Made by a program: the position numbers
Source: Phycisphaeraceae bacterium
GTDB taxonomy: Bacteria > Planctomycetota > Phycisphaerae > Phycisphaerales > Phycisphaeraceae
Length of the DNA: 64,000 nucleotides
Assembly (NCBI GenBank): GCA_965222495.1
Contig: CBDCUA010000005.1
Span: 4,606-68,605 of the forward strand
Direction: 5' to 3'
Shown here: piece by piece, positions 39,001 through 51,000 of the stretch
Position numbering within the stretch: the first letter of the stretch is position 1
How the letters are laid out: each line of letters begins with the position of its first letter

Positions 39001-42000
39001 GGGAAGGCCAGGAAAGATGGTATGGAAATCGTGTTCATAGCTGGCGATACAGACGATGCGGCGATTCTTGATGCTGAATACCTAGTGATCCCCAAAAACT
39101 TGGGCAATAACGTGAAGATGGTGGACCACCAGAACGGCAATCGAGATTGCATTGTGAGCCGTGATGGAAAAATTATTCAGAAAAGTGAACGTTGGATGGC
39201 GAATTAGATCAGATACCCCCCAGATGGATGAATCACACTGCATCTGATGTGGAGTGTAACCGGTTTATTTTGATAAGACTCTTGCAGTTATGTCCTATCA
39301 CTAGAAAGGATCATCGATGACCACCCAAGCTTCAAGACTAGTTCTTTTTGGCATCCTCATCGGTGGGTTGTTGATCGCCGGCGTACGTGCGTGGAGAAAC
39401 AATATTGTCTACGCCGATCACCATGAGCAGGATCCTAAGATAGCAGCAGTAACAGCTGATCGCTTGCGTGCGATGGAGTTTGAAGAGAATCTACGGCAGC
39501 TTCAACAGGAACTGGCGGAGTTGAACGAGAGGTTAAAGGACCCCGTGTTTTCACGGATACGCATCGGAAACGCTGGGGTGATCACGCACAGTGGCGATAG
39601 CATGCGCATCAATACTTCTGTCCTTACAATCGGAAGCGAAGTCGATGCCGAGGGCTCGCCTGGGGCAAGAATCGACTTGCTAAATGGTAGGGGGAATAAC
39701 GGCCGAGTCCATCTCAGTGTAAATAGCACCGGGACAGGCTCGATTCTCATCGCGAATGACAATACCGACGCTGTGGAATTGGAACCTCTCGGGGCTAGGT
39801 TGTTCTCCAGGTGGGGCGTAAAAGGCCAAACAAAAAAGAGAAAGCCCTTGAACGTTAGTCAACCTACGGTTGACGATATGAGCCGATTGGGAGATGCAAG
39901 TTAAGTCCGAGGCGCACTTCCGCCGTGTTGTGTGTTGATACGACATACTCGAAACAGAGATTTGTTTTCTTCAACAGGAGATTACGCAATGCGATCCATA
40001 TTTGTTGTCACTATGGCAGCCGTGACTATCGGCGGGTTGGTGGTGGTGTCGCCCATACTAGGAGGGTCATCCGATCCAGATTTTGCTGGGCCCGTCGTTC
40101 GACGCGCTTTTCATGAACGATTGCAAAGGCTAGAAGAAACCTTATTCCGTTCTGTTAGTGGCGTCGTGCGCTTTGAAAAAGCGTATCTGGACCTGAGTGA
40201 AAACGAAACCCACGCAAATGACGGCTGGTTTGAAGCCGTTCGAAAGATTCAGTTTAACCCTCCGTTTGATCGAACGCCGCTGATATCGGTTTCACTGACA
40301 ATGGTCGAGGGTAACCATAACGTTGTTGCGCGTCCTGATGTCGAAGCGTTTGTCCACAATGAGACTGCCGAGGGGATGGAAATACGATTGATGGCCAGAA
40401 ACAAGGAAGCGTTTAATCGAGTGGATGTCAGCTATATGGTCGTGCCTTTGCCCGCCAGCGTTACATCCAAACATCACCCTTACGGTGAGCCGGGTGTGCA
40501 CGGAGGTGATATTGATTGCATGGTGATCGTGGATGGGAAAGTGGCTCAAGAGGCCAAGGCCATGCAACACGAATAATGGGTAGTAGCCGCTACTTTCTAG
40601 TTCCTAGTGGTCCGTTTGATGTGCACTTTGATGACGGGTATAGGCCACAAGGCCAAAGCACTACGTCATCTGACACATGAGCTATCTGTGGCCAGCTGTA
40701 GCGCTGGATCTACGCCATTGAGCTAAAAAAATTGGCCAAATTGAGCGCAAGCTTCACGCGAGGCTGGCGTTGAAGGTGCCGCGACACGATCGTTGCCGTT
40801 TGAGACGCAGATCCTCGAGCGATACAGACATCGCTTCGGCCATCGCCATAATGCACTGACGCACATCTTGGGGCAGACCCGACCACACTTGAATCAAGCG
40901 TCTCAGATCAGAGGCCAGTGCGCCGTATTCTGCGCCGCTTGATTCAGAAAGTATCTTTTTCTCGGCATTTTCGCCAGGTGTTCGAGTCCTGTATCGCCCA
41001 TTGGGCAAAATGTTGCGAGAACGGATATTAGAATTTCCGTTGACGTTCGGCGACGCAAGCTGAAACGAGTCAAAAACCCGGTACATGCCGGATTTCAATG
41101 TATTGGAAAACACCCCGTTAAGACGAGTCCCCAAGTAGCGCCGGCACTAGACCTCGATTCCTGCGGTCATCACGCTCCACGAAAAGGACTATGATCGCGC
41201 ACGCTTCTAGCTGATCTCATGCGTACAACACAGAGCCGCCGCCTTCAGCCGATTTGAGGATCGAGCAGATCTTACTTTCCGTGTGGGCACGGTCACATTG
41301 TTTCTCATAGTGTTCTTATTGAATCTGCCATTTATCGCCGGGCCATTTGGGATGAATCCCGACCCAAGCCAGGCGCCGTTCAATATGCCGGAGCTACGGT
41401 GGTATTTGGATATCCGTTCTTCTTGGCGTTAATGGTTGGCGTCGTTCTAGGGCAGATCCTATTTTTCAGACGTAAAGGGTAGTTGGAAGCATATAAGAAA
41501 ATGAAGTAAAGTCGTGGTCAACATCACCTTACGGGGCATGGCCTAAAGACTGCTGTTGTGAAGCGTATCGTACGGACGGCAAAATTTGAGATCTGCTTTT
41601 CTTACATTGAGGAAGGCCCCGCGAGCCGTCTGGGGCAAGATGTTACAAATCGCCGTTCATCCCAGCGGGCTCATCGCTATCAATTTCTCGCTCTGTGACA
41701 GCGATATTGGTTGCCAGATCATCGCGGAGTCGATGACCGAGGCTTGTGCCAGGAACCTCCTGTAGGGCTTTGCGAACTTTACGCAAAGATTGAGTGGGCA
41801 CCGCAATATGACAGACAGGTTCGCCAGGTTTTGCTACGGGAAGTGTTGTCATTCCCAAGACGATGCCATCAACTGGTGATGTCAGCACATTCTGTTCTTT
41901 GCCAAACACGCTTACATTGGTCGCGATCGGTTCGCCCTTTTTAATAGGGTGGCCTGGGGAAACATGGAACCGTAGTATGCCACCAACTTCCGATCGCGCC

Positions 42001-48000: not shown

Positions 48001-51000
48001 CTTCTCGACACGGTAGTTGTAACACCTAATCAACGAACTGCGGCACGACGGATTGCCACAGGTGAAACCATTTTCGTCGCTGCCATGTAATGGAGAAATA
48101 CTTCGGCAGACAGGACAAAACCCGACCTGGGCTCCGCAACTGGCGCAGGAGGTGTTGTCAAAGAACAGCGTTTCACCACACGAACATTGAAAAGTGCGCA
48201 TAACGCTACCCTAAGCGACTTCCCATAGTAAAAAGCAGATCATGCCCTTGTACATCGGATCTTGATTCGGTATCCATTCAGCTAGTGCAATTATATTCAC
48301 CGGGCAGAAGAAACGTCATCAGGCACAAGTCTTGTTATGGCAGGCGATAACGTGTTTCGCAACGATCGAGCAGGGTGAACAAGCCGTATCGTGAACACAG
48401 TTCATAGCAGACGTGATCGCCGTAATAGAGCTAGGTCTCAAGTCCAAGCTGACTTGATCGTGTTTATGGGCACGCCACGACAGGGTATCCCAAATTCAAC
48501 ATTCAGTTCTGAGCACATGAAGGGACTCCTACGGTCCAGGCAAAACCGGAGGGTGGTACGGGGGGGTACCTCTAGCCATCTTCTGCTGCTTTGATCATGG
48601 CTAGGATCCCCGCCTTCACTGCCCTTGATAGGGACGGCCAGACCTCCATGATCCCCTTCAATTCGGGGTCACTAATGTCGACCGGTGCAGGGAGTGCGCC
48701 GTATTCTGCGCCGCTTGATTCAGAAAGTATCTTTTTCTCGGCATTTTCGCCAGGTGTTCGAGCCCTGTATCGCCCATTGGGCAAAATTTTTCGAAAACGG
48801 TATGGGTCTTTCCGCCGATATCAGGTCCACGAACTGATTGGCAACCTTGTTAGACCTATCCCTGCCGCGTATTACTATCACATCTTTTCAGGCAACGATA
48901 ATGTATTGCCGTCCTGCTGCATGAAGTTGTCCAAGCCATTAGATTACTACTGGTCGGTTGATGGCAGGGAAGTGTTGTCGGTCGGTCCGGTCAAACTTTG
49001 CGCAAAACGGCTTCTTGGTCCCGTACAACGTCGATTTGGTCCGTGATCCGAGCCGGTCCTCGTCAAGGGGTCGGTACAACACGATTTAGAATTGAAGGAG
49101 CGTTATATTGGTACTCGAACGACCTGGCGGTGTAGCTGAGCGAACGTCAGTAGGGAAATGTCAGATGAAAATAATCAAAGCAGCGTTGCTTATTGTTAGC
49201 CTCCATTACATTGCATTTCCGTACGCGACGGCGGCCTTGCCTAGCGATGAGAGTACGGGCAGTAAAACGAACGAAGCGGTAGAGCGTATCGTCAACTACT
49301 ACTCTGCGAAGTTGTATGACAAGAACAGCGCCGTTCGTCAATACGCCGCACACGCTTTGGGAAAGATGGGGCCAGAAGCCGTCCCTGTGTTGATCGAGGT
49401 GTTGGAAGATGAGCAAGAGGACCAGAGTGTCCGTGAGGCCGTCACAGAAGCCTTGGGAAGTATCGGGTCAGATGCCGAAGCGGCCGTTCCCGTGTTGATC
49501 GAGGTGTTGGAAGATGAGCAAGAGGACCGCAGTGTCCGTGACGCCGCCATACAAGCCTTGGGGCGTATCGGGTCAGGTGCTAGAGCAGCCATACCCACGT
49601 TGGCCGAATTACTGAAGGACAGAACATTTCGTCAGTACGCGGCGATTACTCTAGTAGAAATCGGATCAGCGGCCGTACCCACGTTGGTTGAGGTGTTGGA
49701 AGACAATAAAGAGGATCAGACCGTCCGTCAGTTCGCTGCACACGCGTTAAAAGTGATCAGGCCAGGCGCTGAAACGGCCATTCCCATGTTGATCGAGGTG
49801 TTGAAAGACGAGGAAGAAGATAAAACCGTTCGTCAGTTCGCCGCATACGGTTTGGGAAAGATCGGACCAGAGACCGTTCCCGTATTGATCGCGATGTCGA
49901 TGGACGAAGAAGAGGACAAAACCGTCTGTCAGTTTGCCGCATACGGGTTGGGAGAGATCGGGCCAGAGGCCGTTCCCGTATTGATCGAGGTGTTGAGAGA
50001 TAGACAAGAGGACAGGAATATCCGTCGGTTCCTCACAGCCACCCTAAGACGAATCGGGCCAGGGGCTATAGCGGCCGTTCCCGTGTTGATCGAGATGTTG
50101 AAAGATGAGCAAGAGGACAAGACCGTTCGCCAGTTCGCGAACATTGCTTTGGTAAAGATCGGACCAGGGGCTATCCCCTCATTGATTGAGGTGTTGAAAG
50201 ATAAGCAAGAGAACAGCAGTGTGCGTCAGAAAACCGCAGTAGCCCTGGGAAGTATTGGACTGGGCGCTGGTGCAAAAGCGGCCACGCCTGTGTTGATCGA
50301 AGTGTTGGAAGATAAGGAAGACGACCGAAACGTCCGTCAGAACGCTGCGGCCGCCTTAGGACGAATCGGACCGGGTGCTATAGCGGCCATTCCCGTATTG
50401 ATCGAAGTATTAGAAGATAAGGAAGAGAACAGCAGTGTCCGTCGAGCGGTCACGGTGGCCCTGGGGAGTATTTGGTCAGGCACCCAGACAGCTGTTCCAT
50501 CGTTGATTGAGGTGTTGGAAGATAAGGACGAAGACCAACCCGTCCGCCAGAACGCTGTAGTCGCCTTAGGACATATCGGGTCCGGCGCTAATGCGGCCGT
50601 GCCTGTGTTGATTGAAGTCTTGGAAGACCGGGAAGAGAACAGCAGTCTCCGTCAGGCCGTTGCATCTACCTTGGGAAAGATCGGGCCAGGTGCTGAAGCG
50701 GTCGTGCACGCGTTGGTGGAAGTATTAGAAGACAAAGAAGAGGACCAAAGTGTGCGTCGGAACGCCACGAAGGCTCTGGAGAATATTGGACAAGCGGCCG
50801 TCCCCGCCTTGATCGAGATGTTGAAAAACGAAGACCGAAGCAGCCTCTGGGCCGCCACAACGGTCTTGGAAAATATAGGACCAGATTCTAAGGCGGCAGT
50901 ACCTGCGCTGATCGAGGTGTTGAAAAGCGAAGATCACAGTGTTCGTCTGAGTACATCATCCGCCTTAGGAAAGATCGGATCATCGGCCGTACCTTCGTTG

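Follow-up and report, generated by a model that had tools for sequence, protein, structure and literature searches.

Two different ATP-grasp peptide-ligase systems sit side by side on 7.8 kb of DNA in a Phycisphaeraceae bacterium (contig CBDCUA010000005.1 of assembly GCA_965222495.1), bracketed by long direct repeats that each hold the end of a tRNA gene. What are these repeats, how did the two systems come to lie between them, and can the segment still leave? Here we address these questions in a window of 64,000 nucleotides (nt), the whole stretch of DNA analysed, to which all positions refer unless another locus is named (Table 1). We consider it likely that a ~23-kb block of low guanine-plus-cytosine (GC) content, from 28.0 to ~51.4 kb, is a tandem series of integrative elements inserted one after another at the 3' end of a tRNA-Val(TAC) gene, with the repeats as attachment (att) junctions; the 7.8-kb segment, hereafter E3, would be one of these elements.

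The two repeat copies, recovered by a repeat search of the window, span 108 nt each and agree at 104/108 positions (96%). Reading both copies bears out the 94/95 identity that a preliminary description of this DNA had given for 40917-41011 and 48693-48787: the single mismatch in that span (T40987 vs C48763) falls in the tRNA-derived part, and the three further mismatches all lie in 41012-41024. That description had also placed the 3'-terminal 21-mer of tRNA-Val in each repeat, where it is indeed found, exact at 40980-41000 and with one mismatch at 48756-48776. Outside 40917-41024, local alignments of both flanks reveal no DNA similarity above shuffled controls; an apparent resemblance to the right of 41024 in a MAFFT alignment was rejected as weak and not significant, since local alignments there do not exceed shuffles. 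The sole Rfam match is to tRNA, and the repeat corresponds to no known structured RNA. Could the 95-mer instead be a dispersed, high-copy repeat, akin to a miniature inverted-repeat transposable element or a repetitive extragenic palindrome, that brackets ordinary genes by chance? We regard this as very improbable: there are two copies only in 64 kb, both exactly at the tRNA-core positions of one array, both run on into homologous but diverged protein-coding tails, and none of 185,579 GTDB species-representative genomes contains the 33-nt pattern of the junction.

The tRNA-Val gene is the sole tRNA gene of the window, and its 3' 21-mer, GTTCGAGTCCTGTATCGCCCA, occurs four times, always on the plus strand and with 0.00 copies expected by chance: at 27990, inside the gene itself, and at 34781, 40980 and 48756. 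These copies delimit consecutive low-GC segments, E1 (28.0-34.8 kb), E2 (34.8-41.0 kb) and E3 (41.0-48.8 kb), so that the 7.8-kb module is the third of three or four segments added in succession, and the tRNA-Val gene is the integration target (the attB/attL side) of the whole array. The earlier picture of 7.8 kb bounded by long repeats therefore holds insofar as these are tRNA-derived direct repeats, and needs amending insofar as they are not generic repeats but, on our reading, att junctions within a tandem array. Composition points the same way. Flanking DNA has a GC content of 57-61%, with 0.64-0.70 GC at third codon positions (GC3) of its genes, and the block from 28 to ~51.4 kb is lower; the E3 genes, at a GC3 of 0.50-0.64 vs 0.64-0.70 in flanking core genes, together with the tRNA-derived boundaries, favour the earlier view that the 7.8 kb is foreign.

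The segments differ in what they keep. At either end of E1 stands the same 46-nt copy of the tRNA 3' half, without a mismatch (27969-28014 = 34760-34805); this att block begins in the anticodon loop and reaches the 3' end of the tRNA. E1 encodes the sole intact integrase within the window, a tyrosine integrase at 28125-29426 (+), along with TetR, SDR, OsmC and DUF3800 proteins (Pfam), and has a GC content of 41%. E1, a separate and apparently intact island, was probably the last to arrive and may be active. Its integrase was considered as a server of E2 and E3 and rejected, as it belongs to an unrelated family and its 46-nt att block is absent from the E2 and E3 junctions. E2 carries a LuxR-type helix-turn-helix (HTH) protein (35108-36430, minus strand), a 782-aa coiled-coil protein, two unknowns and an H-lectin-domain protein; no integrase body was found there by Pfam or by tblastn with integrases of the family described below. 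The 440-aa open reading frame (ORF) at 35108-36430 was entertained as a divergent integrase and dismissed, having only a weak GerE HTH match and no NCBIfam match. The left end of E2 and that of E3 do not align locally above shuffles.

On the far side of the second repeat lies a compositionally foreign segment, E4, in which a HEAT/PBS-lyase-repeat gene (49108-51399, plus strand; 763 aa, ~19 units of 96-111 nt) directly follows the repeat. Its GC3 is 0.58, that of the ABC ATPase gene at 51581 is 0.70, and exactly at the boundary between these two genes sits a tRNA-Val-like remnant (51410-51438, plus strand) that matches the core at 14/21 positions, a match that is weak and not significant alone. 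If this is a decayed tRNA-Val 3' fragment, as is possible, the ~23-kb foreign block would have its true right-hand limit here. On the left, a transposase gene of insertion sequence (IS) type (25325-26803, plus strand; HTH_21, rve and rve_3 domains) adjoins the tRNA-Val gene in DNA of lowered GC content, so that mobile DNA lies on both sides of the tRNA-Val gene.

What ties the two repeats to integration is the pair of short ORFs that abut their tRNA cores. A profile of a conserved integrase tail, built without window sequences, has exactly two matches in the six-frame translation of the window, and these are the tail ORFs 40754-40979 and 48572-48755, which remain alike in protein beyond the DNA repeat. 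At the first junction no stop codon interrupts the frame of tail ORF 1 between 41146 and 40757, across the core, and in each repeat copy the 24 nt beyond the core are the last integrase-linker codons on the minus strand; E3 retains a tail and ~45 open linker codons. We take the tail ORFs to be displaced C-terminal coding ends of integrases whose genes span the element's own attachment site (attP). At the left end of E2, a decayed stub is collinear with integrases of the same family down to the tRNA core (tblastn; P0404 best, E = 0.004), with its VRIAQKNYLQV stretch in the catalytic-tyrosine region. E2 thus appears to retain an integrase stub at the expected end and a tail at the other.

A second DNA feature accompanies the cores. 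The 22-nt motif GCGCCGTATTCTGCGCCGCTTG (plus strand) occurs in the window only at 34903, 40920 and 48696, with 0.01 occurrences expected, the first copy (34903-34924) lying 101 nt to the right of the core at 34781. On the integrase strand it reads GGCGCARAATNCGGCGC, which encodes QAAQNAA in the integrase body and, one frame over, SGAESGA in the tail. It holds two GGCGC half-sites 12 nt apart, in a 17-nt element GGCGC-N7-GGCGC. The motif is found again at two loci of distant relatives, at the integrase 3' end in L008 and in the tail, 39 nt from the core, in L009; the tail-side spacing of motif and core in these loci is 38-39 nt, as in the window. Because it is a DNA element on both sides of the core, at a fixed spacing and in two reading frames, we regard the motif as a probable arm-type binding site for the integrase.

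Where, then, are the integrases to which such tails belong? An HMMER search with the tail alignment returned at least 1034 cluster representatives, most of them 55-140 aa long with the match at the C-terminus. Many of them start with an antisense translation of the tRNA T-arm and acceptor stem (GRYRTRT, GDTGLEP, EGFEPP), and by a crude count the antisense T-arm peptide lies ~18 aa upstream of the GAxSGA motif in 59/119 family members. In three longer proteins (P0249, P0310 and P0465), the PF00589 catalytic domain, a variable linker, the antisense-tRNA peptide and the tail follow one another in one frame. The tail domain conserved in the family has ~55 aa (..DPDL..W..LP..AGILAMVKAA). Searching with P0310 retrieves >1400 integrases; the full-length ones among them have ~420-440 aa, and their alignment with P0310 stops at the tRNA peptide. 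In L008 the integrase (7822-9120 of that locus) runs into an opposite-strand tRNA-Val gene (9066-9139, minus strand); in L094, an IMG/VR provirus, it likewise ends inside a tRNA-Val(TAC) gene; and in L009, where no tRNA gene is present, the ORF continues through a core-like 21-mer and on into the tail. These in-frame fusions and the geometry of the three loci argue that the integrase gene of this family spans attP. The target is tRNA-Val in every case examined here, and the named relatives are annotated mainly as Planctomycetota/Phycisphaerae, with some in IMG/VR proviruses.

L009 (JGI 3300038679, Ga0401391_002325) merits a description of its own. The C-terminal half of its integrase, with the tail, occupies 492-1376; downstream of this fusion come genes for a small terminase, a ParE/RelB pair, DUF3987 and HTH_17 proteins; and a second related integrase stands at the end of the locus (10972-11376). 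The arrangement resembles a phage-like element of the attP-spanning family, in tandem or in attP form.

These observations suggest the following course of events. On the strand antisense to the tRNA, the unintegrated element would read integrase body, QAAQNAA motif, variable linker, tRNA core and ~55-aa tail. Integration would cut the integrase gene at the core; the body would stay at the tRNA-proximal junction, and the tail would be left behind at the distal one, with its direction of reading pointing away from the tRNA fragment displaced there. In a tandem of same-family elements each internal junction would be attP-like (tail, core, linker), and for this reason the two junctions would be alike. 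Each new element would enter the intact tRNA gene, giving an order of arrival of E4 (if it is such an element), E3, E2 and E1. The near-identical stretch, from the 22-nt motif to just past the core, would then be the functional att segment, and the sharp edges of the repeat may have arisen by mosaic recombination or gene conversion anchored on the motif and the core. E3 itself would have come as, or on, a related integrative element that subsequently lost its mobility genes: a corA relic sits where the integrase body of E3 would be expected, and the six cargo genes were kept.

Several points weigh against this account. Because the window contains no cognate integrase body, it is by comparison with relatives that the junctions are ascribed to site-specific recombination. 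For the integrase stub of E2 the match is weak (E = 0.004, across three frames), and the 22-nt motif could be conserved as coding sequence only. Furthermore, the 63 nt to the left of the core are identical in the two junctions, yet the adjoining tails share ~35-50% protein identity, with a seven-codon indel; such identity is unlike what simple independent integrations would leave, and so an extra step, mosaicism or gene conversion, has to be added. The 24-nt similarity to the right of the core can be accounted for only if E4 is itself a related element, and the tRNA fragment proposed as its terminus matches at 14/21 positions. Finally, searches, among them one of genome contigs with the flanking pheT gene, found no close host relative for an empty-site comparison.

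An abrupt block of identity invites a different last step, in which a Campbell insertion by RecA-type homologous recombination, or unequal crossing-over, took place within a pre-existing, common att segment of ~108 nt, leaving the module as a passive product. Identity that extends well past the 21-nt core on both sides and ends abruptly is what a duplicated block of homology would look like. The incoming DNA would, however, already have to hold the att segment and a different tail ORF, which is to say that it would itself be a related integrative element; homologous insertion changes the last step of the tandem-integration account and does not replace it. We think it improbable as the origin of the repeats.

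Is E3, as the preliminary description had proposed, an excisable unit? That claim went beyond the evidence. No integrase or excisionase lies between the repeats, and the integrase of E1 is unrelated. Specifically, 41001-48776 has no PF00589 match and no tblastn match to integrases of the family, and tblastn finds no other family integrase within the window. By Pfam, E2 and E3 are also without the excisionase (HTH_17) and the DUF3987 replication gene seen in the intact relatives L008 and L009. With neither integrase nor excisionase, with its integrase-proximal end decayed to the corA relic, and with the sole intact integrase of the array unrelated, E3 is not expected to excise autonomously. Its exit would require either a cognate integrase provided in trans or RecA recombination between the repeats.

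The former route underlies a stronger proposal, namely that the 7.8 kb is mobile at present, excised as a circle by an integrase encoded elsewhere in the genome, in the manner of a mobilisable island. Its junctions are nearly undamaged (94/95, the motif, the spacing and the core all preserved), none of the six cargo genes is truncated when set against its relatives, and the integrase family is abundant and occurs in the same kind of samples. Set against this are the missing integrase, excisionase and DUF3987 genes of E2 and E3, the corA pseudogene at the integrase-proximal end, the E1 integrase with its anticodon-to-3'-end block that the junctions lack, and the want of any further family integrase in 64 kb. 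We find present mobility unlikely, though a shade less so than homologous insertion. Under the tandem-integration reading, E3 is an integrase-less, cargo-only island remnant resembling the cis-mobilisable elements discussed below, a known kind of structure.

Table 1. Coordinates in the window of the tRNA-Val(TAC) gene, the array segments, the junctions and the E3 genes
Feature	Position	Strand	Basis or content
tRNA-Val(TAC), intact	27937-28011	+	ARAGORN; Rfam tRNA 74.3 bits
Segment E1, nearest to tRNA	28012-34805		Repeat search, Pfam
Integrase 3' stub, decayed, frameshifted, E2 left end	34770-34997	-	..VRIAQKNYLQV.., QAAQNAA motif 34903-34924, antisense tRNA
Segment E2 cargo	35108-40576		Pfam; GC3 0.48-0.55
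Tail ORF 1	40754-40979	-	Motifs ..SGAEYGAL..W.GLP..IMAMAEA..; family profile E = 6.2e-18
Repeat copy 1, junction E2/E3	40917-41024	+	Motif 40920-40941, 38-nt spacer, tRNA-Val core 40980-41000, 24 nt
corA C-terminal relic, frameshifted, GMN motif	~41238-41482	+	In the place expected for the E3 integrase body
AstE_AspA_cat, AstE/AspA-type zinc deacylase	41643-42743	-	Pfam
RimK + Rimk_N + TrkA_C, RimK-family alpha-L-glutamate ligase	42740-43930	-	Pfam
PF05618 retropepsin, RimB-like	43956-44441	-	Pfam
CP_ATPgrasp_2, circularly permuted ATP-grasp	44666-46144	+	Pfam
Alpha-E	46137-47114 (46137 = likely start)	+	Pfam
Zn_ribbon_DZR_6 + Peptidase_Mx, convergent	47131-48201	-	Pfam
Tail ORF 2	48572-48755	-	Motifs ..SGAEYGAL..DPEL..VWPSL..AGILAMIKAAEDG; family profile E = 4.8e-27
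Repeat copy 2, junction E3/E4	48693-48800	+	Motif 48696-48717, 38-nt spacer, core 48756-48776, 24 nt
Segment E4, compositionally foreign	48801-51438		HEAT-repeat gene 49108-51399

The six genes first described between the repeats all have Pfam matches. Three form a minus-strand operon (41643-44441) of RimB-like, RimK and AstE proteins. The RimK protein matches PF08443 (1.8e-59) and the pre-ATP-grasp domain PF18030 (6.1e-38); among NCBIfam models it scores 256 bits vs a cutoff of 143 for TIGR00768 (rimK_fam) and falls just under the cutoff for the S6-Glu ligase equivalog (325.8 vs 331). Its RimB-like partner matches PF05618 (8.6e-36) and reaches 119.7 bits vs a cutoff of 200 for the NCBIfam RimB equivalog. 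Pfam finds no EAL (RimA) gene in this operon, and rpsF, the gene for ribosomal protein S6, is not within the window. In Pseudomonas, RimK polyglutamylates S6 and RimB trims the S6 tails (PMC7343187, PMC11957791). Judging by family membership, the RimK of E3 would add glutamate tails to a protein C-terminus and the RimB-like retropepsin would trim them, as may the AstE/AspA-type hydrolase.

The second system consists of a circularly permuted (CP) ATP-grasp protein (PF14403, 2.2e-172) and an Alpha-E protein (PF04168, 2.8e-106), a pair which, according to PMC5666114 citing Iyer 2009, forms the central part of the Anbu operon, for which a role in peptide synthesis has been proposed. Pfam finds neither transglutaminase nor Anbu domains in 41-48.8 kb; Peptidase_Mx stands in their place. 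By analogy with their families, the CP ATP-grasp and Alpha-E proteins are a putative peptide ligase, with Peptidase_Mx as the likely opposing hydrolase. The Zn-ribbon peptidase had been listed as a separate item of the segment, a view that we revise: CP_ATPgrasp, Alpha-E and a convergent Peptidase_Mx also occur together in L002, L006, L007, L012 and L013, with ~77-78% identity in L002, L006 (GCA_029260715.1), L012 (Phycisphaeraceae D3-23) and L013, and this recurrence in the closest relatives assigns the peptidase to the CP ATP-grasp module.

The corA fragment, previously noted as decayed, is indeed a frameshifted C-terminal relic with a GMN motif. Its start (41238-41279, plus strand) has a 42-nt inverted match at 79% identity in the neighbourhood of the IS-type transposase (25254-25295, minus strand), both sequences encoding ..(L/F)EDRADL... 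An IS terminal repeat was considered for this match and rejected; it is either a second corA scrap or the trace of an old rearrangement.

Do the relatives of the cargo place the two systems together? All six window proteins tested are representatives of their own 90%-identity clusters, five of the six as sole members, and have no close relatives. The RimB-RimK-AstE trio has counterparts in L001 and in L003-L005; those of L001 and L003 (GCA_029260715.1) are 75-85% identical and are surrounded by housekeeping genes. In GCA_029260715.1 the two ligase modules lie on separate contigs. Among 80 more distant metagenome loci of CP_ATPgrasp, Alpha-E follows the ligase in 72/80 and Peptidase_Mx is present in 5/80, and RimK, RimB or AstE is found in 0/80, including 43 loci with at least 4 kb of upstream DNA. 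A general conserved neighbourhood linking RimK and CP_ATPgrasp was accordingly rejected (0/43); the juxtaposition of the two modules in E3 is unusual and not a conserved neighbourhood, in agreement with the preliminary description, which had singled out the co-packaging. L002 is the sole partial exception, with a short RimK beside the ligase. Both modules have their best matches in one genome and one sample, which would be compatible with, but is not proof of, a single donor lineage.

Homologues in housekeeping surroundings could also be taken to mean that there is no island and that the genes between the repeats belong to a native, syntenic core. The nearest homologues (75-86% identity) do lie in such contexts in other genomes, and the likely host appears to share their broad lineage (Planctomycetota/Phycisphaerae-like). 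Their contexts, however, differ from each other and from the window, none of the cargo-relative loci sits at tRNA-Val, and the two modules are mostly unlinked, lying on different contigs in GCA_029260715.1; moreover, the six genes fall below core genes in GC3 and are enclosed by displaced tRNA fragments. Synteny in relatives, which the preliminary description had named as a finding that would speak against its reading, is thus not what these loci display, and a native origin has very little probability.

Two of the relative loci are of interest in themselves. In L002 (ENA ERZ25072999 ctg319511, 8981-13740), the RimK protein has 301 aa, is without TrkA_C and is encoded divergently to CP_ATPgrasp in a chromosomal context; the module there comprises CP_ATPgrasp, Alpha-E, a proteasome-like gene (the sole such locus among the nearest relatives) and a convergent Peptidase_Mx. 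In L012 (CP114179.1, 8001-14331), a distance of 2.3 kb separates the CP_ATPgrasp-AlphaE-Peptidase_Mx trio from rpsF-ssb-rplI, and rpsF encodes a known RimK substrate (S6). This anecdote (n = 1) fits with both ligase systems touching the ribosome.

Far from the array, at 96-3626 (plus strand), the window also encodes a 1176-aa protein, probably a repeat-domain surface protein, with nine tandem units of ~264-273 nt at 63-90% identity (repeats at 372-2837).

For annotation, the locus indicates that long repeats embedding a tRNA end can be read as junctions of accreted elements, and that spurious-looking small ORFs starting in tRNA fragments can be read as stranded 3' ends of attP-spanning integrase genes. 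It further offers one clear case in which a RimB-RimK-deacylase operon and a CP-ATP-grasp/Alpha-E/Peptidase_Mx trio are joined on horizontally acquired DNA. Decay of the mobility genes alongside an intact cargo suggests that the cargo was under selection, and the segment provides a natural two-module cassette for asking whether both systems act on a common target, for example ribosomal protein S6. The attP-spanning integrase family with its stranded tails is the most interesting by-product of the analysis; current understanding is not overturned by these findings. More tentatively, and with rather more doubt than confidence, we put forward a joint proposition: that this is a large family, of at least 1000 clusters at 50% identity and undescribed as far as we found, whose tail is severed on integration, and that E3 may be a cassette mobilisable in trans. 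If so, integrated and excised states would make different integrases, comparable to the IntP/IntX switch of phage Mx8, many orphan small ORFs called from inside tRNA fragments would be stranded integrase tails, and E3 could move two protein-tailing systems together.

How does this array compare with systems already described? In the Islander catalogue of genomic islands, integrase ORFs may cross attP and tandem arrays are on record, although an integrase was required in each array member and arrays of at least three are rare (4/3919 islands; PMC4383910). The window resembles such arrays in having an intact tRNA gene at one end and co-oriented, displaced 3' fragments at the boundaries (34781, 40980 and 48756), as well as DNA of foreign-looking composition, with what is probably the newest element nearest the tRNA; it differs in that an integrase is found in E1 only, with a stub in E2 and none in E3. 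In phage Mx8, as summarised in PMC6070905 and PMC4383910 (citing Tojo 1996 and Magrini 1999), int contains attP and has its 3' end altered on integration. As far as those summaries go, the likeness to the present family extends to an attP within the integrase coding sequence, a C-terminus replaced upon integration into a tRNA gene, and an original 3' end left at the far junction. The family works alike without being a member by sequence: a search of 50,697 phage records with P0310 (tblastn, E <= 1e-3) retrieved nothing, and homology to Mx8 was not detectable. The target of Mx8 is tRNA-Asp, whereas here it is tRNA-Val and the tail is a distinct conserved domain of ~55 aa.

Streptococcal integrative and conjugative elements are accompanied by cis-mobilisable elements (CIMEs), which are flanked by att sites and lack an integrase. 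E3 is alike in having att sites in direct orientation, in lacking genes for recombination or transfer, and in standing in tandem with an integrase-bearing element at the same tRNA gene. It differs in the co-resident integrase, that of E1, which is of a different family with a different att block and is therefore unlikely to mobilise E3 in cis.

The cargo, too, has its counterparts. As in the RimABK system of S6 glutamylation in Pseudomonas (PMC4741518, PMC7343187, PMC11957791), RimK is probably co-transcribed with a RimB-like retropepsin; E3 differs in having no RimA (EAL), in the AstE/AspA-type zinc hydrolase as its third member, in a RimK with an extra TrkA_C, and in a RimB score below the NCBIfam equivalog cutoff. 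The Anbu operon, as PMC5666114 outlines it from Iyer 2009 and Valas & Bourne 2008, combines CP ATP-grasp, Alpha-E, transglutaminase and Anbu. Measured against that outline, E3 has CP ATP-grasp and Alpha-E in the same order and translationally coupled; it is without transglutaminase and Anbu, and in E3 a convergent Zn-ribbon/Peptidase_Mx gene completes a trio that is kept in the nearest relatives.

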